NCBI GenBank assembly: GCA_051155755.1
Contig: DAXETY010000002.1
Coordinates: 26,860-90,859, forward strand
DNA length: 64,000 nucleotides
Origin: Desulfobacterales bacterium
GTDB lineage: Bacteria > Desulfobacterota > Desulfobacteria > Desulfobacterales > SG8-13
Direction of reading: 5' to 3'
Shown: one piece after another, positions 9,411-64,000 of the stretch
Position numbering within the stretch: position 1 is the first letter of the stretch
How the letters are laid out: every line of letters starts with the position of its first letter
Position numbers and translations under genes: made by a program
The notes under the pieces: model-generated
What the model was told of the DNA's origin: nothing
Databases searched by the model: none
The model's input: only the letters and a program-made list of their open reading frames with translations

Positions 9411-9439
9411 TCATTAAAAATGACTGTAACCTAAACTGA

Positions 9440-9518
9440 GCGTTTCAAATTTTCCAAAATAATTTTTTATATTTATTCAAAGGATTTATATCGATTTCAA
9501 ATTTGAAAATTTGAAACC
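9440..9518. promoter_or_regulatory. AT-rich block with TTCAAA/TTTGAA palindromes
   Basis: Perfect 14-bp palindrome TTTCAAATTTGAAA at 9495..9508, followed by a second TTTGAAA. GCGTTTCAAATTTTCCAAAATAA at 9440..9462 resembles 62095..62117. Confidence 0.3.
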
Positions 9519-39725: not shown

Positions 39726-39998
39726 TCGAACCATCCCTGGTTGATATTGATCCTGGAATTTGAGCGACCGGACAGCCGTGCAGTATATCGGGCCGGCGGC
39801 CGGCATCGCGCCGGGCGTTGACTTCCCGGTCGTATGTGCGATATAAAAAGCCTCCACCGAAAAGGAAGAAGCCGTTCTTTATGGGATTCAGTGGAGGCTT
39901 CGAGCAAGGAAAACTGGGGGCAGCACTCCTTGAACTCGGTCCAATTCCCTATCAGCTTCATTCGATCCGGTCAATTGCAAAAGTCTGGAGAGCCCAAC

Positions 39999-41360
39999 GT
40001 GCGGAGCCCTTATCTCAAGATCCAACGGTGCCTGCGGTTGTGTATGTCGATCGGTCTGATCGCGGCGGTTGGTTGGACCATTTCCGTTCGGCATGCAGGG
40101 GCTGAGCCGCCCGCCGATCCCGCGGCCATGTCCCTGGCTGCAGCGGTGGAAAACGCCATCGAAGCCAACCTGGAGTTGAAGCAGTCCCGGCAGGAAATCA
40201 GCGCTGCCGAGGCAAACCGTAATGTAGAGCGTTCCAACCTGCTGCCGATCTTTTCGACCGACTATCGGTATACGCGCAACGACGACGATACCGGCGGTGC
40301 GTTTGCCGGCGGCTTCAGCGGCACGCTGCGGGACGAATATTCGCTTTCCGCCACGGTCCGTCAGCCGCTGTTCGAGGGATTCTCCCTGATCAACCGCTAT
40401 GAGATCGCCGACATCGGCATCGATGTCGCCGGCCTGAACCAGCGGATTACCCGGCTGGAGGTGATTTTTCTGACCAAGCGGGCTTACTTCACCGTGTTGA
40501 AGAACCAGAAACTGGTGCTGGTGGCCCTCGATTCGGTCAAATTGCTGGAAGCCCAGGTAGACGTGGCCCGCAATTTTTACGAGGTGGGCATGACCCCGCT
40601 CAACGACCTGCTGCAGGTTCAGGTGGAGCTGGCCAACGCCAAACAGGACCTGACCGTTGCCCAGAACAATCTGAACATCGCCGAGTCGGAATTCAACATC
40701 ATCCTGCGCCGGCCGGTCAACGCACCGGTCAACCTGATCGACATTACCGAATATCAGCCACTGATCCGGGATCTCGACCGCTTTCTTTCGCTGGCCGAGG
40801 AAAACCGCTTCGACCTCCTGGTGGCCGACCTGCAGATCCAGGTTGCCGAAAAAGAAGTCACCGTTGCCCGCAGTGGTTACTATCCCTCGGTAAACCTGGA
40901 GGCCACGTGGTTCAGAAGGGGGGCCAACTGGGATCTGAGCGATCAGGAGGAATTCCTGGATCCGGACGGCTGGTCCGTGGCCGGTGTCGCCTCCTGGAAT
41001 TTCTGGGAGTGGGGCCGTACCGCTTACAACGAAAAGGAGAAAACCCATCGCCTGGCCCAGGTCCGGCTCGAAAAACAACGCACCCTGGATACGGCGCGCC
41101 TGGAGGTCGAACGCGCTTTTCTGAACGCGAAACAGTCGGAAAAAAACATCGTGACCGTGGAGGCCGCCATCGAACAAGCCCGCGAAAACTGGCGCATTAC
41201 CCAGGAGCGCTTCAAGGAACAGGTGGCCACGTCCACCGACCTGCTGGTGGCCCAGAACCTGCTGGTTCGCACCCAGAACAACTATTTCAATGCCCTCTAT
41301 GACTTCAAGATTGCCAAGGCCGCACTGCAGCGGGCGATCAATCTGGAAATGCGGGAATGA
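39999..41360 (+). CDS. TolC-family outer membrane channel protein
   Basis: GTG at 39999 after GGAGAG. Signal peptide. Two-fold internal repeat of long coiled helices, typical of the OEP family. Confidence 0.8.
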   Translation: MRSPYLKIQRCLRLCMSIGLIAAVGWTISVRHAGAEPPADPAAMSLAAAVENAIEANLELKQSRQEISAAEANRNVERSNLLPIFSTDYRYTRNDDDTGGAFAGGFSGTLRDEYSLSATVRQPLFEGFSLINRYEIADIGIDVAGLNQRITRLEVIFLTKRAYFTVLKNQKLVLVALDSVKLLEAQVDVARNFYEVGMTPLNDLLQVQVELANAKQDLTVAQNNLNIAESEFNIILRRPVNAPVNLIDITEYQPLIRDLDRFLSLAEENRFDLLVADLQIQVAEKEVTVARSGYYPSVNLEATWFRRGANWDLSDQEEFLDPDGWSVAGVASWNFWEWGRTAYNEKEKTHRLAQVRLEKQRTLDTARLEVERAFLNAKQSEKNIVTVEAAIEQARENWRITQERFKEQVATSTDLLVAQNLLVRTQNNYFNALYDFKIAKAALQRAINLEMRE

Positions 41361-42046
41361 TTCCGGAGGAAGAAAAAAACGCCATCGTCCGGCTTTTCCA
41401 CGTATACCGGAATTTCGGTGCCAAAAATGCCCTGATCGACATTACCCTGGACATCTATAAGAACGAATTTCTGTTCATCAGCGGCCCCAGCGGAGCCGGA
41501 AAGACCACGCTGCTCAAACTGCTCTATCTGGCCGAGACCCTGTCGGATGGTCAGATTCTGGTAAACGGCATCAACCTTGCCCGCATCCCCCGCAAAAACA
41601 TTCCGGCGTTACGGCGCAACTTCGGCATCATCTTTCAGGACTACAAACTGATACCGACCAAGTCCGTCTACGAAAACGTCGCCCTGGTGCTCGAAGCCGC
41701 GGGGCACAATCGCCGGTTCGTTCAGAAAAAAGTCAAAAGCGTCTTGCGAACGGTAGGGATGGAGCAGCGACTCGGCATGCTGCCACCGAGCCTATCCGGT
41801 GGAGAGCAGCAACGCGTTGCCATCGCCCGCGCCGTGGTCGGCGATCCGCAGATCATCCTGGCCGACGAACCCACCGGCAGCCTGGACAATGATGCTGCCG
41901 AACTGATATTCGACTTGCTGAAGAGCTTTCACACCCGCGGCGCCACCGTCGTCATCGCCACCCATGACAAGGAGCGCATCCGCAAAACCGGCGGGCGGGT
42001 CATTCACCTCAGCGGCGGCAGGCTGATCGAAACGCCCGATGTTTGA
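41357..42046 (+). CDS. ftsE: cell division ATP-binding protein FtsE
   Basis: Walker [10 protein letters not shown], signature LSGGEQQR, Walker B ILADEPTG. 229 aa. The ATG overlaps the tolC-family stop (ATGA). Confidence 0.85.
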
Positions 42047-42184
42047 TTTTCCTCGCCGGCAATGTGTGATATGATTGCAGCCGTAAACCGGATGCCGTTC
42101 GGAAGCACGGCTTCGAAAACTCCAGCGGGGGTGGTTGATTCGATCAACGGCGGCAGCGGCATTGATTCCCACCGGACCTGAAAT

Positions 42185-42321
42185 CTGAGTCAACAACCAC
42201 CCGCGAAGCGGGTGGCTTGAATTTTCTTCCTGCGGCACTCGCCGCGGGCAAGAAAAGGCAGAAGCATTTTTGTGCTTCGATGTTGAACTTGCACCGGGTG
42301 CATGGCACCCGGTTTGGGCAA
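42185..42321 (-). repeat. dispersed multi-hairpin intergenic repeat, copy 1
   Basis: The reverse complement aligns almost base-for-base with 55299..55428. Shares its first ~55 nt and its hairpin architecture with 61724..61884. Confidence 0.85.
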
Positions 42322-42332
42322 GAACCAAAAGA

Positions 42333-43208
42333 ATGTTTTACTTCAAACGCGCGATCCAGGACATACGACAGAACCGTTTTCTGAACCTGGTAACCATCGT
42401 TACCATTGCGCTTTCGATTCTGATCGTCAGCGCTTTCGTGCTCTTTTTGCTGAACACCAACGATCTGATCCAATCCTGGGAAAAGGGGATGCGGATCATG
42501 GTCTATCTGGAGTCGAATCTGCCCGGGCCGCAGATTTCGGGCATCGAGGACCGCATCCGCAAATTCGAAGGCGTGGAATCGGTGCGTTTTATCTCGCGGG
42601 AAGTCGCCCTGGCGCAGCTGAAGGAACAGATGGGGCGCCAGTCTTCCCTGCTGGAAAATCTGCGCGAGAACCCGTTGCCGGATTCATTCGAAATCAGCCT
42701 CACAGCCGGAAGACAAACCGCCGCAAGAATCGAATTGTTGGCCCGTCGAATCGAAACGCTGCCGGAAGTTGCCGAAGTTGAATACGGCCAGCGCTGGATT
42801 AAACGGTTTTCGGGCGTTTTGCAGCTGTTTCGCCTGGCTGGCTATGCCCTGGGAGGTCTGTTTTTCCTGGCGGCCATATTCTTTGTTGCCAATACCATCC
42901 GGTTGGTGCTCTACTCCCGCCGCGAGGAAGTGGCCATCATGCGACTGGTGGGCGCCGAAGACCGTTTCATCAAAACCCCTTTCTACATTCAGGGACTGAT
43001 TCAGGGGGCTTTGGGAGGCCTCATCGGTCTGTCCGGCCTGCTTCTGCTGTTTTTGCTGGTTTCCTCCAACGTGGAGCAAAGTCTGACAACCGGAATGTTT
43101 CAGATTCACTTCCTGCCGTTGCGCTGGCTGGCGCTCATCCTGCTGGCCGGCATGCTGGTGGGATGGCTGGGTTGTTTTTTGTCGCTGCGACAGCACCTGG
43201 AACAATGA
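42333..43208 (+). CDS. ftsX: cell division permease-like protein FtsX
   Basis: ATG at 42333 (MFYFKRAIQDIRQNRF). One TM, a periplasmic domain of about 100 aa, then three C-terminal TMs. Confidence 0.85.
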   Translation: MFYFKRAIQDIRQNRFLNLVTIVTIALSILIVSAFVLFLLNTNDLIQSWEKGMRIMVYLESNLPGPQISGIEDRIRKFEGVESVRFISREVALAQLKEQMGRQSSLLENLRENPLPDSFEISLTAGRQTAARIELLARRIETLPEVAEVEYGQRWIKRFSGVLQLFRLAGYALGGLFFLAAIFFVANTIRLVLYSRREEVAIMRLVGAEDRFIKTPFYIQGLIQGALGGLIGLSGLLLLFLLVSSNVEQSLTTGMFQIHFLPLRWLALILLAGMLVGWLGCFLSLRQHLEQ

Positions 43209-43236: not shown

Positions 43237-44613
43237 ATGAAACGCTGCCGGCGTTGCCTTGTCGCCGCCCTATTCGTGTTTATTATCGGGCATGCACAGA
43301 GCCGGGCGGAAGAAATCGGTATCGTTTTGGTCGAAAATCTCAATCTCAGGCCACAGGCCGGCATGGAAACCCCGGCGCTGGACCAGCTGGGAAAAGGCAG
43401 TGCGGTCGTTATTTTGAGCCGCCACAACGGATGGCTGCAGGTCCGGCACCAAGACCGCGTCGGCTATGTCAAGGACAGCCCGGATTATATTCGGATCGTC
43501 ACGGTGGCTGCGGACGGCGACCACTCCAGATTGGACGGCTACCGCCAGGAGGCCGAAAAGCTCGACCGGGAGCTTCAAACCGCCGAAAATGCCTTGCGAC
43601 AGACCGCCCAGGAAGAAAGTGCGGTGCTGGACAAAATCGACGCCCTCGCACGCAACATTCACAGCATCCGACGCAAGATTGCCGCCGGCCGGATGGAACT
43701 GGAAGCACTGGAGAAGCAGATCGAAGCCAATCGAGACGCCTATGAGAAATTGAGGCAACACATCGAAAACAACGACGAGTACGTAGCCGGGCGCCTGGTG
43801 GCGCTCTTTAAATTAAACCGGTACGGCACACTTCCGTTTCTGGCCTCGGCGGATTCCCTATCCGAACTGCTCCAGCGCAAGAAATCCCTGGAGTATATTC
43901 TGCGACACGATGAAACGGTCCGCGACAAGCTGACGCAGGACCTGGAACAACGCCGGCGCATCGGCCAACAATTGCAGGACCAGAAAGCCCGCAGGCGCCG
44001 CGTAGAGATGACCTTGGAAACCGACCTGCGCGCCCTGGCGGATCGAAAATCGAAACGGGAACAAATACTGGCTCGCATTCGGAACGAAAAATCCCTGCAG
44101 CAGGAGGCGATCGATTCACTCAAAGAAGCGGCCGAAACACTGGATCGTACCGTGGCAAACTTGATGGAATCGGAGCCCAAAACCATCGAGAACCCTTCGC
44201 TGACGTCGTTCTCGTCGCTGAGGGGCTTGCTAAAAATGCCGGTACAGGGTAAGATTATTAACTTTTTCGGGCCTCAGAAAAACGCACGATTCAACGTCAC
44301 CGTCTTCCGCAGCGGGATCGACATACAGGCCGACTCCGGAGCGGTGATCCAGGCCGTGTTTGCTGGACGCGTGATGTATGCCGACTGGTTCAAAGGCTAT
44401 GGTAATCTGATCATTATCGATCATGGCGACAGTTACTACACCGTTTACGCACATCTGGAAACGCTGTTAAAAAAAACGGGGGAAACCGTAAATACCGGAG
44501 AGGATATCGCGACCGTCGGCGACACGGCACTGATGGCGGAGCCGGTTCTGCATTTCGAAGTCCGCCATCATGGCACCCCCCTGGATCCATTGGAATGGAT
44601 CATGCGGGGCTAG
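43237..44613 (+). CDS. EnvC-like murein hydrolase activator (SH3 + coiled coil + degenerate LytM/M23 domain)
   Basis: AAGGAG RBS and a signal peptide. Long coiled coil. C-terminal M23 fold in which the first metal-ligand context reads RSGIDI rather than HxGxD. Confidence 0.8.
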   Translation: MKRCRRCLVAALFVFIIGHAQSRAEEIGIVLVENLNLRPQAGMETPALDQLGKGSAVVILSRHNGWLQVRHQDRVGYVKDSPDYIRIVTVAADGDHSRLDGYRQEAEKLDRELQTAENALRQTAQEESAVLDKIDALARNIHSIRRKIAAGRMELEALEKQIEANRDAYEKLRQHIENNDEYVAGRLVALFKLNRYGTLPFLASADSLSELLQRKKSLEYILRHDETVRDKLTQDLEQRRRIGQQLQDQKARRRRVEMTLETDLRALADRKSKREQILARIRNEKSLQQEAIDSLKEAAETLDRTVANLMESEPKTIENPSLTSFSSLRGLLKMPVQGKIINFFGPQKNARFNVTVFRSGIDIQADSGAVIQAVFAGRVMYADWFKGYGNLIIIDHGDSYYTVYAHLETLLKKTGETVNTGEDIATVGDTALMAEPVLHFEVRHHGTPLDPLEWIMRG

Positions 44614-44726: not shown

Positions 44727-46087
<1,361 letters not shown>

Positions 46088-46088
<1 letters not shown>

Positions 46089-55200: not shown

Positions 55201-55298
55201 GACGATTCAGCAGGTTTGATAGGTTGGACGGGCACGATCGATAACCGGTGGGATTCAAGTGAAACCATTCCGCCCGTGGAAACGCACCCGTTTCATTG

Positions 55299-55428
55299 TT
55301 GCCCAAATCGGGTGCTACTGCAAGTTCAACATCGAAGCACGAAAGTGCTTCTGTCTTTTCTGGCCAGCGGCAATTGCCGATGGCAAGAAAATTCAAGCCA
55401 CCCGCTTCGCGGGTGGTTGTTGACTCAG
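55299..55428 (+). repeat. dispersed multi-hairpin intergenic repeat, copy 2
   Basis: Near-identical to the reverse complement of 42185..42321, except for a deletion of about 9 nt that removes half of the first hairpin. Its last bases include the stop codon of the CDS ending at 55425. Confidence 0.85.
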
Positions 55429-59502: not shown

Positions 59503-59910
59503 TTGACCGACAAGGAAATCATCGAAAAAACCCGCAAGACCGCTTCCCTGTATTTCGAAAACGTGGAAGGGGAACGGCCCTTCGAGCTTTGGCGCGCGTT
59601 CGATCCGCAATTGGCCAAAGACATGTCGCTGTTTATCACCGGTCGGATGTACGCCCGGGAAAAACTGCCGCATCCCGTGCGCCAGCTGGTCACCGTCGCC
59701 GCGCTGACCGTGCTGGGACGGGAAGATGAACTGCGGCTGCATATTCAGGCGGCACTCAATGTGGGCTGTGCGCCCCGGCAGATCGCCGAAACGATTTTTC
59801 AAACCTTGACCTACGGCGGCGTGCCCACGGTCAACACCGCCCTGAAAGTCCTGCGGGCGGTGCTGCAAGAGCGGGGCATGTGGCCGCTGGCCGACGAGGA
59901 ACTCGCCTAG
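59503..59910 (+). CDS. carboxymuconolactone decarboxylase (AhpD-like) family protein
   Basis: TTG start. 135 aa. The helical LVTVAALTVLGREDELRLHIQAALNVG pattern is typical of the CMD family. Confidence 0.7.
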   Translation: MTDKEIIEKTRKTASLYFENVEGERPFELWRAFDPQLAKDMSLFITGRMYAREKLPHPVRQLVTVAALTVLGREDELRLHIQAALNVGCAPRQIAETIFQTLTYGGVPTVNTALKVLRAVLQERGMWPLADEELA

Positions 59911-59986
59911 CGAACGGCGCGCCCGCCATGCAGGGCGCCGGTGCGGAAATTGGGCCATCCAACGCAGAAAAACCGGGGGACCGAAT

Positions 59987-61720
59987 ATGAGACCGTATTT
60001 CGAAAAAATGACAGAGTTCGGACAGCCGCTGAACGAAGGGCAGATCAAAAGTACCGAAGAAAACCTTCGACAAATCCGGGAGGTCGAAAACGAGATTCGC
60101 CGGGAAGTCGAAAAGGTCCAGCAGGCCGGATTCCCGGAAGAAAAAATCAATGCCCGGGGCATGATGACGGTCTGGCAGCGGCTGCGCTACCTGGTCGATC
60201 CGGGAACCTGGTGCCCCCTGCACATGCTTTACAATCCGGAGGAAAATCCCGAGGGCACCACCAATGTCATCGACGGGCTGGGAAAAATCTCCGGCAAATG
60301 GGCGGTGGTGATCGGATTCGACAACAAGGTCTTCGCCGGTGCCTGGTTGCCGGGGCAGTATGAAAACATCCTGCGGGCCACCGATCTTTCCAAACGGCTG
60401 AACATCCCGCTGGTCTGGCTGGTGAACTGCAGCGGCGTAAAACTGACCGAGCAGGAAAAATTTTATGCCGACCGCCGCGGCGGCGGCACCACGTTCTTCC
60501 GCCACGCCGAACTGGAACAGCTGGGCATCCCGGTGCTGGCCGCCATCTACGGGACCAATCCGGCCGGAGGCGGCTATCAGGGCATCAGCCCCACGGTGCT
60601 GTTCGCCCACAAAAACTGCAACATCGCCGTGGGCGGAGGCGGCATCCTCAGCGGCATGTCGCCCAAGGGATACTTCGACCAGGAAGGCGCCGAACAGCTG
60701 ATCAAGGCCGCCAAACAGTACAAGGTCGAGCCGCCGGGCTCGGTCAAAATACATTACGACCAGACCGGATTTTTCCGCTATGTCTACGAGGAGGAAACCC
60801 AGGTCCTCGACGGCGTAAAGGACTTCATGGCCGACATGCCGGCTTACCATCCCAAGTTTTTCCGCGTCGCCGCACCCAATCCCCCGCGGTTCCCGTCCGA
60901 GGAGATCGCCCGCCTGGTGCCCTTCAATCAGAAGCAAATGTACGACTTCGACCAGGTGCTGGCACGCCTGGTGGACGGCAGTGAGCACATGGAATTCCGA
61001 CCGGACTACGGACCGGAAGTCTACACCGGCCTGTGCAAGGTGGACGGATTCCTGGTGGGCTGTATCGGCAACCGCCAGGGATATCTGGGCGAAGATTATC
61101 CCGAATACGCACCGTATCCGGGCATCGGGGGAAAGCTCTACCGCCAGGGGCTGATCAAGATGAACGAATTCGTCACCCTCTGCGGACGCGACCGGGTTCC
61201 GATCATCTGGTTCCAGGACACCACCGGCATCGACGTGGGCGACCTGGCGGAAAAAGCCGAGCTGCTCGGGCTGGGTCAGTCCTTGATTTACTCCATTCAG
61301 CAAACCGAGGTGCCCATGATGCTGGTGGTTTTGCGCAAGGGCAGTGCGGCGGCCCACTACATCATGGGCGGGCCCACCGCCAACCGGCACAATGCGTTTA
61401 CCCTGGGGGTGCCGACCACCGAAATTTACGTGATGCACGGCGAAACCGCAGCGGCGGCTTCGTTTTCGCGCCGGCTGGTCAAAGAAAAAGACGCCGGTCG
61501 TCCCCTGGAGCCGGTCATCGAGAAGATGAACGAAATGGTCCAGGAATATTACGACAAATCGCGCCCGATTTACTGCGCCCGTCACGGATTCGTGGACGAG
61601 GTCGTTGCCATGGCGGAAATCCGCCGGTACCTGACGGCCTTTGCCGGAGCCGCGTACCAGAATCCCAAATCCATCTGCCCCCATCACCAGATGCTGCTGC
61701 CCCGCAGCATTCGCGGTTGA
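59987..61720 (+). CDS. acyl-CoA carboxyltransferase, glutaconyl-CoA decarboxylase alpha (GcdA)-like
   Basis: 577 aa with two crotonase-like carboxyltransferase halves. The N-terminus and length resemble GcdA as I recall it. Confidence 0.8.
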   Translation: MRPYFEKMTEFGQPLNEGQIKSTEENLRQIREVENEIRREVEKVQQAGFPEEKINARGMMTVWQRLRYLVDPGTWCPLHMLYNPEENPEGTTNVIDGLGKISGKWAVVIGFDNKVFAGAWLPGQYENILRATDLSKRLNIPLVWLVNCSGVKLTEQEKFYADRRGGGTTFFRHAELEQLGIPVLAAIYGTNPAGGGYQGISPTVLFAHKNCNIAVGGGGILSGMSPKGYFDQEGAEQLIKAAKQYKVEPPGSVKIHYDQTGFFRYVYEEETQVLDGVKDFMADMPAYHPKFFRVAAPNPPRFPSEEIARLVPFNQKQMYDFDQVLARLVDGSEHMEFRPDYGPEVYTGLCKVDGFLVGCIGNRQGYLGEDYPEYAPYPGIGGKLYRQGLIKMNEFVTLCGRDRVPIIWFQDTTGIDVGDLAEKAELLGLGQSLIYSIQQTEVPMMLVVLRKGSAAAHYIMGGPTANRHNAFTLGVPTTEIYVMHGETAAAASFSRRLVKEKDAGRPLEPVIEKMNEMVQEYYDKSRPIYCARHGFVDEVVAMAEIRRYLTAFAGAAYQNPKSICPHHQMLLPRSIRG

Positions 61721-61723
61721 TTC

Positions 61724-61884
61724 CTGCCCGCACCGGGTGGTGCGCACCCGGTGCAAATTCCACATCAAAGCACAAAAGTGCTTTTTGACTCTGCCGGCCC
61801 CCGTCCCTTGCCGGGTCCGCCGCCCGGCAAGGCGATTTCCCGCATCCGATCCGGGGGGCTCGTCGCTTCGCGGTGTATCCCCCT
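61724..61884 (+). repeat. dispersed multi-hairpin intergenic repeat, copy 3 (divergent variant)
   Basis: Shares GCACCGGGTG..CACCCGGTGCAA(A/G)TTC(C/A)ACATC(A/G)AAGCACAAAA(G/A)TGCTT with copies 1 and 2. After that it has analogous but different hairpins (CCTTGCCGGG/CCCGGCAAGG; CGCTTCGCG). Confidence 0.7.
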
Positions 61885-62094
61885 GCAATGCTTCCCTGCA
61901 ATGAGCGCTTCCAATTTTCGAAAAAACCTAAATCTCAATTCGATCTCTCTGATAATAAAGGCCTGTTATTTCGAAATGCGCACGGGGACGTCCACCGCGC
62001 TGAAAGACATCGAAGTTTGGTTCGAATCGACCTTTTTTTCATCCCCCCGATGCTTATTATTGACCTTCGACGATTGATTCGTACCGTGAACGGA

Positions 62095-62117
62095 GTGTTT
62101 CAAATTTCTCGAAAATA
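62095..62117. promoter_or_regulatory. AT-rich motif GTGTTTCAAATTTCTCGAAAATA upstream of uvrA
   Basis: 40 nt upstream of the uvrA ATG. About 19 of 23 positions (one indel) match 9440..9462. Confidence 0.25.
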
Positions 62118-62156: not shown

Positions 62157-64000
62157 ATGCAACCTCTGCAAGCCATCCGGGTTCGTGATGCCCGGCAAAA
62201 TAACCTCAAAAATCTGGACCTCGACATCCCCCTGAATCGAATCACCGTGATCTCGGGCGTCAGCGGTTCGGGAAAATCATCCCTGGCGTTCGACACCCTG
62301 TATGCGGAAGGCCAGCGCCGCTACGTCGAGACATTTTCCCCCTATGCGCGGCAATTCATGGACCGCATGGATCGCCCCCACGTGGGACGCATCGAAGGCA
62401 TACCGCCCGCCGTCGCCATTGACCGTAAAGACCCGGTGCGCACCTCTCGCTCCACCGTCGGCACCATGACAGAAATCACCGACTACGTAAAACTGCTGTT
62501 TGCGCGTCTGGCACAACTGCACTGCCGTAGCTGCGGTCGACCGGTGGTGGAAGACACTCCCGGTCGGATCTGGCAAAAACTGAAAGACCACCTCGGCTCC
62601 GAGCTGATTCTGACTTTCCCCTATGCCGGAGAAGGCACCGAGGCAGCCTCCGTTCGCCGGGAGCTGGCCCAGCTGGGATACGACCGCTGGTTCGACGGGA
62701 AACAAATCCGCCCCCTGGCCGATTGGCAACCGGCCGACACGGACCGCCCGGTGGATGTCGTGGCCGACCGGATCAAGCTTGCACAGCAGAGCCGCAGCCG
62801 CCTGATCGACTCGATCGAACTTGCTTTCCGATTCGGCGGCGACCGGATGGATGCCTGGGTGGCGCGCAACCGCCGCGTGCCCTTCAGCCGCCACCTGGAA
62901 TGCCCCCACTGCGAAATCTCCTACAGTCCGCCGCTGCCGAGCCTGTTTTCTTTCAACAGTCCGGTGGGCGCCTGTACGAACTGTCGGGGGTTCGGACGCA
63001 CCATCGACATCGATCTGGATCTGATCATTCCGGACCGGGACCGATCCATCGCAGGCGGCGCCATCAAACCCTGGGGGGACCGTCGGGAACACCGGGCCGA
63101 GTTCGAAGACCTGATGGAATTCTGCCGACGGCAGAAAATCCCGGTCGACCGGCCGTTTCGAAAACTCAGCGATGCCCAGCAACGGGCCGTCGTGGAGGGC
63201 GAATCGGGTTTTTACGGTGTCCGCGGTTTTTTCCAGTGGCTGGAAAGCAAAACCTACAAAATGCCGGTCCGCGTGTTTCTCTCCCGCTACCGCAGCTATG
63301 ATCTGTGCACCGAGTGCCGGGGGGCGCGCTTCAAACCCGAAACCCTGCTCTACCGGCTCGGCGGCCGCAACATCGCCGAAATTTACGCCCTGGACGTGGA
63401 CCGGGCGGCGGACTTTTTCCGCGAACTCGAGGTGGCTCCGCAGGACGAAGCCGGGATGCTGGTGCTGCAGGAGGTTCGCAGCCGCCTGCAATACCTGCAG
63501 GACGTCGGGCTCGGTTACCTGACCCTGGACCGGCAATCCCGCACGCTGTCCGGCGGCGAAGTCCAGCGCGTGGCCCTGGCCTCCTCGCTGGGTTCGTCGC
63601 TGGTCAACACGCTTTACATCCTGGACGAACCCAGCATCGGACTGCATCCGCGGGACAATCACCGGCTGATCCGCATCCTGAAAAATCTGCGCGACCTGTC
63701 AAATACCGTGGTGGTGGTCGAACACGACCCCGAAATCATTCGCTCCGCCGACTTCCTGCTCGACCTGGGGCCGCGGGCCGGCGAGCAGGGCGGGGAGGTG
63801 ATGTATTTCGGCCCGACCGCCAAGGTCAACGGATCCCTGACCGGTCAATACCTCAAGGGCAGCCGTCGCATTGCCCTGCCGAAACAGCGCCGAAGTGCTC
63901 CCCTCCGGGACCGGATCCGCATTGAAGGCGCGGCGGCCCACAACCTGAAGTCGATCGACGTGGAGATTCCGCTTCAATGCATGGTGGCACTGACCGGAGT
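62157..64000 (+). CDS. uvrA: excinuclease ABC subunit A family protein (5' partial, runs off the window)
   Basis: ATG at 62157. GVSGSGKSSLAFDTLYAEGQRRYVE, CxxC zinc modules, LSGGEVQRV, LYILDEPSIGLH. The second ABC module starts near the window end. Confidence 0.9.
   Translation, partial: MQPLQAIRVRDARQNNLKNLDLDIPLNRITVISGVSGSGKSSLAFDTLYAEGQRRYVETFSPYARQFMDRMDRPHVGRIEGIPPAVAIDRKDPVRTSRSTVGTMTEITDYVKLLFARLAQLHCRSCGRPVVEDTPGRIWQKLKDHLGSELILTFPYAGEGTEAASVRRELAQLGYDRWFDGKQIRPLADWQPADTDRPVDVVADRIKLAQQSRSRLIDSIELAFRFGGDRMDAWVARNRRVPFSRHLECPHCEISYSPPLPSLFSFNSPVGACTNCRGFGRTIDIDLDLIIPDRDRSIAGGAIKPWGDRREHRAEFEDLMEFCRRQKIPVDRPFRKLSDAQQRAVVEGESGFYGVRGFFQWLESKTYKMPVRVFLSRYRSYDLCTECRGARFKPETLLYRLGGRNIAEIYALDVDRAADFFRELEVAPQDEAGMLVLQEVRSRLQYLQDVGLGYLTLDRQSRTLSGGEVQRVALASSLGSSLVNTLYILDEPSIGLHPRDNHRLIRILKNLRDLSNTVVVVEHDPEIIRSADFLLDLGPRAGEQGGEVMYFGPTAKVNGSLTGQYLKGSRRIALPKQRRSAPLRDRIRIEGAAAHNLKSIDVEIPLQCMVALTG

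Follow-up and report, generated by a model that had tools for sequence, protein, structure and literature searches.

The genes ftsE and ftsX lie 286 nt apart in the 64,000-nt stretch of Desulfobacterales DNA analysed here (referred to as the window), and part of the gap between them is taken up by a repeat that can fold into several hairpins. An earlier note on this DNA, made from the letters alone, offered two explanations: the repeat could attenuate the expression of ftsX and envC relative to ftsE, or it could be a neutral insertion resembling MITEs or REP sequences. The locus raises the question of how the gap arose, what the repeat is and whether its hairpins serve the regulation of ftsX.

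The ftsE-ftsX spacer in the window and in relatives

The spacer (42047-42332, 286 nt) is situated in the following group of genes.

39834-41360, + strand: TolC-like outer-membrane efflux protein gene (OEP; Pfam OEP, E 9.7e-65)
41357-42046, + strand: ftsE, ABC ATPase (Pfam ABC_tran, E 1.7e-32)
42333-43208, + strand: ftsX (Pfam FtsX_ECD, 3.6e-21; FtsX, 2e-14)
43237-44613, + strand: envC-like M23 peptidase gene (Pfam; synteny in L003-L011)
44727-46088, + strand: ctpA (Pfam; synteny in L003-L011)

Gene calls, repeat matches and folding agree that ftsE and ftsX are split here by a 286-nt spacer carrying a multi-hairpin repeat, as had been described. The order OEP-ftsE-ftsX-M23-ctpA is kept wherever the contigs of relatives extend far enough (L003-L011; contigs L007 and L008 start inside ftsE), and a polysaccharide deacetylase gene after ctpA is also syntenic in every relative with a sufficient contig. 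The stop codon of the OEP gene overlaps the ATG of ftsE by 4 nt (ATGA); such translational coupling of an OEP gene to ftsEX is unusual and may merit a separate look.

FtsX homologues were gathered, their contigs were fetched, and the spacers were then aligned. The lengths are given below with the FtsX identity to the window.

L010: FtsX identity 65%, spacer 67 nt
L007: FtsX identity 81%, spacer 76 nt
L009: FtsX identity 79%, spacer 77 nt
L004: FtsX identity 83%, spacer 79 nt
L011: FtsX identity 62%, spacer 123 nt
L005 and L006: FtsX identity 82%, spacer 191 nt
P0002: FtsX identity 95%, spacer 277 nt
L003: FtsX identity 96%, spacer 279 nt
Window: reference FtsX, spacer 286 nt

In none of the relatives examined are ftsE and ftsX adjacent, and element-free relatives possess spacers of 67-123 nt. 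The premise of the earlier note that the two genes are normally adjacent or overlapping thus fails in this clade. Judged from these alignments, the split is ancestral in the clade, and the novelty implied for it was overstated.

The aligned spacers share a common skeleton. Its 5' half consists of TTTTCCT, ~10 variable nt, ATnTGTGnTATnAT and a short variable stretch, and its 3' half of TTCCCACCGGA, a few nt and CTGA, followed by ACCAGACGA-ATG. Projected onto the window, this skeleton divides the spacer as follows.

42047-42076, + strand: ancestral 5' part of the spacer (TTTTCCT, variable ~10 nt, ATnTGTGnTATnAT)
42077-42147, + strand: lineage-specific, hairpin-rich, single-copy insert of ~71 nt, holding GGTGGTTGATTCGATCAAC
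42148-42188, + strand: ancestral 3' part of the spacer (GGCGGCAGCGGCATTGATTCCCACCGGACCTGAAATCTGA, ending in CTGA; aligns with L004, L005, L007 and L009)
42189-42323, + strand: repeat element copy 1, 135 nt, full type (GTCAACAACC ... TTTGGGCAAGA; nhmmer E 1e-46)
42324-42332, + strand: leader ACCAAAAGA directly before the ftsX ATG, corresponding to ACCAGACGA in empty sites

The 286-nt gap would therefore combine an ancestral spacer of ~75 nt with two lineage-specific insertions. No obvious Shine-Dalgarno sequence was seen in the 42324-42332 leader.

The boundaries of copy 1 were set by the empty sites in relatives. In the window and in L003, the element (135 nt in the window; GTCAAC...GGGCAAGA) sits exactly between CTGA and ACCA, while in L004, L005, L007 and L009 the CTGA is followed directly by ACCAGACGAATG with nothing in between, all four spacers ending in CTGA and then A(C/T)C(A/G)GACGAATG. 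The repeat placed by the earlier note at 42185-42321 is hence real, but its limits shift to 42189-42323, since the CTGA at 42185-42188 belongs to the pre-existing flank. The comparison of ftsE-ftsX junctions proposed at that time shows the element in the ftsEX spacer of the ~96%-identical relatives only, and an empty site in four lineages at 79-83% FtsX identity. The best-supported explanation for this distribution is that copy 1 represents a recent insertion into an already existing spacer.

The insert at 42077-42147 is found in the window and L003 only and is absent from L004, L007 and L009; no further copies of it were found. L005 and L006 carry an unrelated insert of ~115 nt at the same point, directly after TATGATT (L005 9840-9960), so that this point appears to be a hot spot for insertion. 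As several independent insertions have been accepted, the ftsE-ftsX spacer can be regarded as a tolerant site. The partial inverted match that had been reported at 42130-42148, just upstream of the repeat, has only ~8-9 nt (GGTGGTTG) in common with the element end, which was judged no better than chance, and it falls inside the single-copy insert. It was rejected as a second arm of the element.

When the 5' part of the spacer was compared at the same position in the window, L003, L004, L005, L007 and L009, TTTTCCT and ATnTGTGnTATnAT proved invariant in all six, and the bases between and after them vary. Within this region, TGnTATGAT at 42067-42075 reads as a putative extended -10 promoter with a weak -35 element; the promoter scan did not flag it because of the poor -35. 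This suggests that ftsX-envC-ctpA may own a promoter downstream of ftsE. A spacer with a conserved promoter-like motif that always separates ftsE from ftsX in this clade is arguably more telling for the regulation of FtsEX than the repeat.

A dispersed multi-hairpin repeat

The earlier note had described a first hairpin followed by three more, and folding recovered all four in copy 1.

42197-42215, + strand: H1, CCACCCGC-GAA-GCGGGTGG, 8 bp (7 GC), -14.6 kcal/mol, then CTTGAATTTTCTT
42222-42256, + strand: H2, TTTTCTTCCTGCGGC-ACTC-GCCGCGGGCAAGAAAA, -21.5 kcal/mol
42261-42278, + strand: H3, GAAGCA-TTTTTG-TGCTTC, -7.6 kcal/mol
42293-42313, + strand: H4, ACCGGGTGC-ATG-GCACCCGGT, -16.3 kcal/mol

The best-conserved core of the element, GATGTTGAACTTGCA, directly follows H3, and the 5' arm of H4 is missing from a whole subfamily. 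Two further candidates within the element were rejected. A sigma-54 promoter in H4 (TGGCACCCGGTTTGG) has GG instead of GC at -12 (by eye) and is not kept in copies 2 and 3, and a small peptide encoded by the element is contradicted by indels that break the frames between copies.

The description of the repeat as a dispersed element is borne out by three copies in the window and ten element-derived stretches elsewhere. The 44 nt at 42185-42228 are 100% identical to 55385-55428 on the opposite strand, and arms of 72 and 67 nt match 55319-55390 and 61717-61783 at 82-83%. Core patterns gave 3 and 2 matches in the window, compared with 0.00 expected in shuffles. An HMM of the element (nhmmer) detected exactly three copies in the 64-kb window (E 1e-46, 8e-48 and 2e-10), all of them intergenic. 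In addition to copy 1, these comprise the following features.

55297-55424, - strand: copy 2, 128 nt, subtype without the H4 5' arm (nhmmer E 8e-48)
55242-55296, - strand: 'tail' of ~55 nt that follows copy 2; L014 lacks most of it along with the element
61722-61789, - strand: copy 3, 68 nt, short form (nhmmer E 2.4e-10)

Copy 2 lies between a gene for CoA-transferase subunit B, whose TGA it follows immediately, and a downstream MFS transporter gene. A search for CoA-transferase B homologues led to three contigs (L013, L014 and L015). In L014, in which the CoA-transferase B gene is 97.8% identical at the nucleotide level (95.7% at third positions), the spacer measures 42 nt (ctgaGTCGATCG...) and contains no element; 182 nt are missing, corresponding to the element and most of the ~55-nt tail. 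The left boundary of this deletion or insertion coincides with the left end of the element. The evidence from L014 is one contig of 2.4 kb, stemming from the run that also yielded the more distant L009, and its empty site could also result from a secondary 182-nt deletion instead of never having been occupied. L015 (95.7% nucleotide identity) carries the element with an internal deletion of ~35 nt, by which H2 and about half of H1 are gone, and at this locus the spacer of L013 (88% protein identity) is 161 nt long and unrelated in sequence. On these three contigs, copy 2 is polymorphic and dispensable. The tail may be part of the element or of the ancestral spacer. It holds CGGGTGC, which is able to pair with the remaining H4 arm; its alignment with the L013 spacer is not significant (41/500 shuffles score as well). 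As a separate observation, the 9-mer TCCCACCGG occurs twice in the window (1.2 expected), at 42167-42175 (+) and 55245-55253 (-), both times less than 50 nt from an element copy and in the context TTGA(A/T)TCCCACCGG. The site by copy 1 is ancestral, being present in element-free relatives, and the one by copy 2 belongs to the tail, which L014 lacks.

In copy 3, the left end GTCAAA is joined directly to H3 and H4, and H1 and H2 are lacking. It abuts the stop codon of a carboxyltransferase gene on the + strand (59987-61720; Pfam E 1.8e-96). Next on the + strand comes a long ORF that extends from 62157 to the end of the window; a UvrA-like gene occupies this position in L013. Lying on the minus strand beside + strand genes, copy 3 is therefore inverted relative to transcription. 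Opposite the real carboxyltransferase gene, the minus strand contains a 685-codon open frame (59831-61888) with no Pfam match. Two other kinds of repeat were observed in the window. A motif of ~34 nt (core GAGYGYTTCMAATTTY) is present in three copies of 74-76% identity (9426-9459, 61891-61924 and 62081-62114), two of them within the 436-nt region upstream of the ORF at 62157, and could be a regulator-binding site or a promoter element. Furthermore, two pairs of direct repeats of 49-53 nt and 71-74% identity (27614-27662/28945-28993 and 28279-28331/29574-29626), each ~1.3 kb apart and in register, suggest two tandem paralogous genes or domains.

Outside the window, a protein-database query made of the five concatenated stop-free translations of copy 1 retrieved 10 'hypothetical proteins' (P0241-P0250) from public metagenomes. 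These are 121-218 aa long and largely consist of translated element copies and intergenic flanks, with an element stretch of ~25-45 residues read in one of the six frames and flanks unrelated to each other. Together with the window copies, the family comprises at least 13 loci. In P0001 and P0003 (FtsX, 329 aa; 96% relatives), 38 residues translated from the element have falsely been added at the N-terminus. Public annotation has thus already been corrupted by the repeat, through the false FtsX extension and at least 10 spurious 'hypothetical proteins'.

A local duplication or recombination of ordinary terminators, rather than a dispersed family, might also have produced the similarity between the copies. 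This explanation would fit the terminator-like hairpins on both strands of the copies and the stop codons abutted by two of the three copies, but it is highly improbable in view of a 135-nt four-hairpin unit found at 83-100% identity at unrelated loci 13 and 19 kb apart, at least ten other flanking contexts in other samples and the clean insertion junction in the ftsEX spacer.

At least two multi-copy subtypes can be distinguished within the dispersed family. The H4 5' arm is present in copies 1 and 3, P0241, P0245, P0246, P0248 and P0250, and lacking in copy 2, L015, L003, P0003, P0242, P0243, P0244, P0247 and P0249. Copy 1 is thus of the full type in the window and armless in L003 and P0003, pointing to gene conversion or to the replacement of one copy by another. 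The left end of the element is usually GA followed by GTCAACAACC, and the right end is GGGCAAGAA(T/C)CAA(C/A), so that the termini form imperfect 8-nt direct repeats (GAGTCAAC ... GAAYCAAC). A comparison by eye of the left end GTCAACAACC with the reverse complement of the right end (TCTTGCCCAAA) gave no match that would indicate terminal inverted repeats. Copies often lie immediately behind (C)TGA. CTGA pre-exists at two insertions (copies 1 and 2), and copy 3 follows CAGA; among the only ~13 loci available, a number that makes statistics on targets and orientation weak, the left flanks differ in some of the copies within spurious ORFs (P0243 and P0247; e.g. RTA, CAR). Both ends of copy 1, of copy 3 and of the copy 2 counterpart in L015 show GA at the junction, and on the left GA is near-constant across loci. 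It may be element sequence or reflect a target preference, and is ambiguous as a target-site duplication.

Searches of other collections returned no recognisable relative of the family. The core GTGCTTNGATGTNGAANTTGCA gave three unrelated chance matches (L001, L002 and L012) in GTDB species genomes and JGI metagenome contigs, in which the source genome is evidently not included; it had no match in IMG/VR, and BLAST against plasmids returned nothing. Rfam at gathering thresholds had no match in the whole window, and under relaxed settings the best match was CRISPR-DR15 with 20.9 bits, compared with a gathering score of 36, alongside a match to tRNA-Sec; no tRNA or tmRNA was found in the window. 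No transposase, including the Y1 type, was detected among the 26 window ORFs scanned against Pfam. In the literature, no repeat family was found described in Desulfobacter-type bacteria, and none between ftsE and ftsX. These results point to an intergenic repeat family not catalogued before, with small (68-135 nt), non-coding members that contain several hairpins, in an uncultured Desulfobacterales-like bacterium.

Constraint on the element and its possible effect in the ftsEX operon

The constraint on copy 1 was assessed by comparing the window with L003. At third codon positions, the two sequences agree at 94.3% of sites in ftsE and 91.1% in ftsX; identity amounts to 93.7% for the flanking spacer and 94.1% for the element, which has gaps at 11 positions, the largest being an 8-nt loss of the H4 5' arm. 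In L003, H1 (CCATTCGC) is weakened by two G.U pairs, and its stem is followed by an additional G. The element diverges at about the synonymous rate with structural decay, and no purifying selection is visible. The neutral MITE- or REP-like insertion put forward in the earlier note is supported by this rate of change, by the absence of the element in four lineages and by indels that destroy hairpins, as well as by the inverted copy 3 and by the presence or absence of copy 2 between near-identical contigs.

Combined, the evidence leads us to consider it probable (roughly 0.75) that the element belongs to a new intergenic repeat family of the REP/BIME/RIME or MITE kind, moved in trans, with copy 1 as a recent and near-neutral member. 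The element would have been moved or copied by an enzyme encoded elsewhere, its copies would exchange sequence by gene conversion, and within the ftsEX operon copy 1 would ride along as a recent and almost neutral insertion. It does not seem to be selected here, because it is absent in relatives, its structure decays, its orientation is mixed and it occurs in many unrelated contexts.

A selected cis-acting attenuator would require that H1 and its U-rich tail end part of the ftsE transcripts, possibly together with stabilisation of the ftsE 3' end by the hairpins, either of which would leave FtsX, EnvC and CtpA below FtsE. The element does lie within a conserved operon, and the E. coli malE-malF REP hairpins set differential expression within an ABC-transporter operon. 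In copies 1 and 2, a simple scan picked out H1, an 8-bp stem with 7 GC pairs, together with CTTGAATTTT as resembling a terminator on the sense strand, and H3 as resembling one on the antisense (minus) strand. The earlier note had likewise described an intrinsic-terminator-like module at the start of the element. The tail CUUGAAUUUUCUU passes the scan with 5 T in 8, but only 2 U fall in its first 6 nt; as the U-tract (CUUGAAUUUU) after H1 is interrupted, at most weak termination is to be expected. Each of the four one-sided changes seen in H1 replaces C by U and leaves a G.U pair on the sense strand, which might hint at constraint at the RNA level, in numbers too small to argue for selection. 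Against an attenuator, four related lineages with the same operon lack the element and with it H1 at the orthologous position, and the 96% relative shows neutral-rate divergence and hairpin-removing indels. The same sequence is found after the CoA-transferase gene, inverted after the carboxyltransferase gene and in at least ten other contexts. Moreover, since FtsE and FtsX work together in a 2:2 complex, lowering FtsX would bring no obvious benefit. We therefore regard a selected attenuator as unlikely.

A multi-copy structured RNA, either an sRNA or a riboswitch-like leader acting on ftsX and the MFS transporter gene, is very unlikely. Folding of the whole spacer is indeed stronger than that of dinucleotide shuffles, pairing is kept in 96.8% of ungapped cells, and copies 1 and 2 are sense-oriented upstream of genes for membrane proteins. 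Yet the two strands fold about equally well (z = -3.8 for the + strand and -4.1 for the - strand), and compensatory change is limited to 2 pairs across five sequences, a number reached by 29/500 shuffles; copy 3 contributes one compensatory G-C to A-U change in H3. Further points against an RNA function are the lack of an Rfam match, the orthologs with whole hairpins deleted, the inverted copy 3 without H1 and H2, the near-identical contig without copy 2 and the promoter scan, in which no outward sigma-70 promoter was detected in or next to the element.

Even as a near-neutral passenger, copy 1 could influence the operon. Transcription starting from ftsE or from the candidate post-ftsE promoter must pass the element to express ftsX, envC and ctpA, and H1 with its interrupted U-tract would cause at most partial termination or pausing. 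The element could also shield the upstream ftsE message from 3' decay, as REP hairpins do. Any such effect would probably be a by-product and not a conserved regulatory device. Should H1 prove to cause polarity, a comparison of strains carrying the element with those lacking it would reveal how far the divisome tolerates changes in the FtsE:FtsX:EnvC balance. The practical value of the element is modest; besides the annotation artefacts, its main consequence is its possible use as a strain-level marker for this uncultured lineage.

Comparison with known small repeats

In comparison with enterobacterial REP/BIME and Rhizobium RIME sequences, the element is likewise short, non-coding and strictly intergenic, and is built as a mosaic of GC-rich imperfect palindromes. 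It is also found between co-transcribed genes or after stop codons, varies between strains and has the potential to act as a weak terminator or mRNA stabiliser. However, REP sequences are defined by one palindrome type of ~35 nt (~20-40 nt) with a conserved head tetranucleotide, arranged in inverted pairs (REPIN), whereas here four different hairpins follow in a fixed order, and there is neither a conserved head of the GTAG type nor an inverted doublet of one palindrome. Rfam, pattern and BLAST scans revealed no similarity to catalogued repeat families.

The MITEs Correia/NEMIS of Neisseria, ERIC of enterobacteria and RUP of pneumococcus are alike in being dispersed, non-coding and ~100-150 nt long. 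They share presence/absence polymorphism, insertion within operons, subfamilies formed by internal deletion and possible terminator- or promoter-like signals. The element resembles them in its small non-coding form (68-135 nt) and in its presence or absence among close relatives (empty sites in L004, L007, L009 and L014). In contrast to their clear terminal inverted repeats and TA target duplications, its ends are imperfect direct repeats without terminal inverted repeats, and the only junction duplication is the ambiguous GA.

The PATEs derived from IS200/IS605 provide a third comparison. Here, too, hairpins are subterminal (H1 starts 8 nt from the left end and H4 ends 10 nt from the right), inverted repeats and a clear target duplication are lacking, and two insertions are located 3' of CTGA, with the third after CAGA. 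The element differs in that no parent IS or Y1 transposase is present in the window ORFs scanned, the CTGA flank is not universal, the short copy 3 lacks H1, and terminal direct repeats are foreign to PATEs. It is tempting to speculate that these are undescribed, hairpin-ended miniature elements mobilised as single strands by a Y1/RAYT-like or other site-directed recombinase, homing to (C)TGA or GAAYCA-like sequences at gene ends and spreading in two subtypes whose copies replace each other through gene conversion. The non-inverted termini, subterminal hairpins and CTGA-adjacent insertions favour such an IS200/IS605- or RAYT-type mechanism, while the terminal direct repeats, the variable flanks and the lack of an enzyme in the 26 ORFs argue against it or are left unexplained by it, and we consider it doubtful. 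Were it true, the terminator-like hairpins on both strands could re-partition the operon into OEP-ftsE and ftsX-envC-ctpA in some strains.

A fourth comparison is provided by the BOX elements of Streptococcus pneumoniae. These are modular, with whole modules present or absent, intergenic and predicted to form stable RNA or DNA structures, and a similar variation is seen here in copy 3 (left end, H3 and H4), in the subtype with an armless H4 and in L015, which is without H2. The differences lie in the absence of any sequence relation and of a tandemly repeated middle module, and in the different phylum. Lacking the hallmarks of both classical REP sequences and DDE-type MITEs, the element is best filed within the broad known class of small bacterial intergenic repeats.
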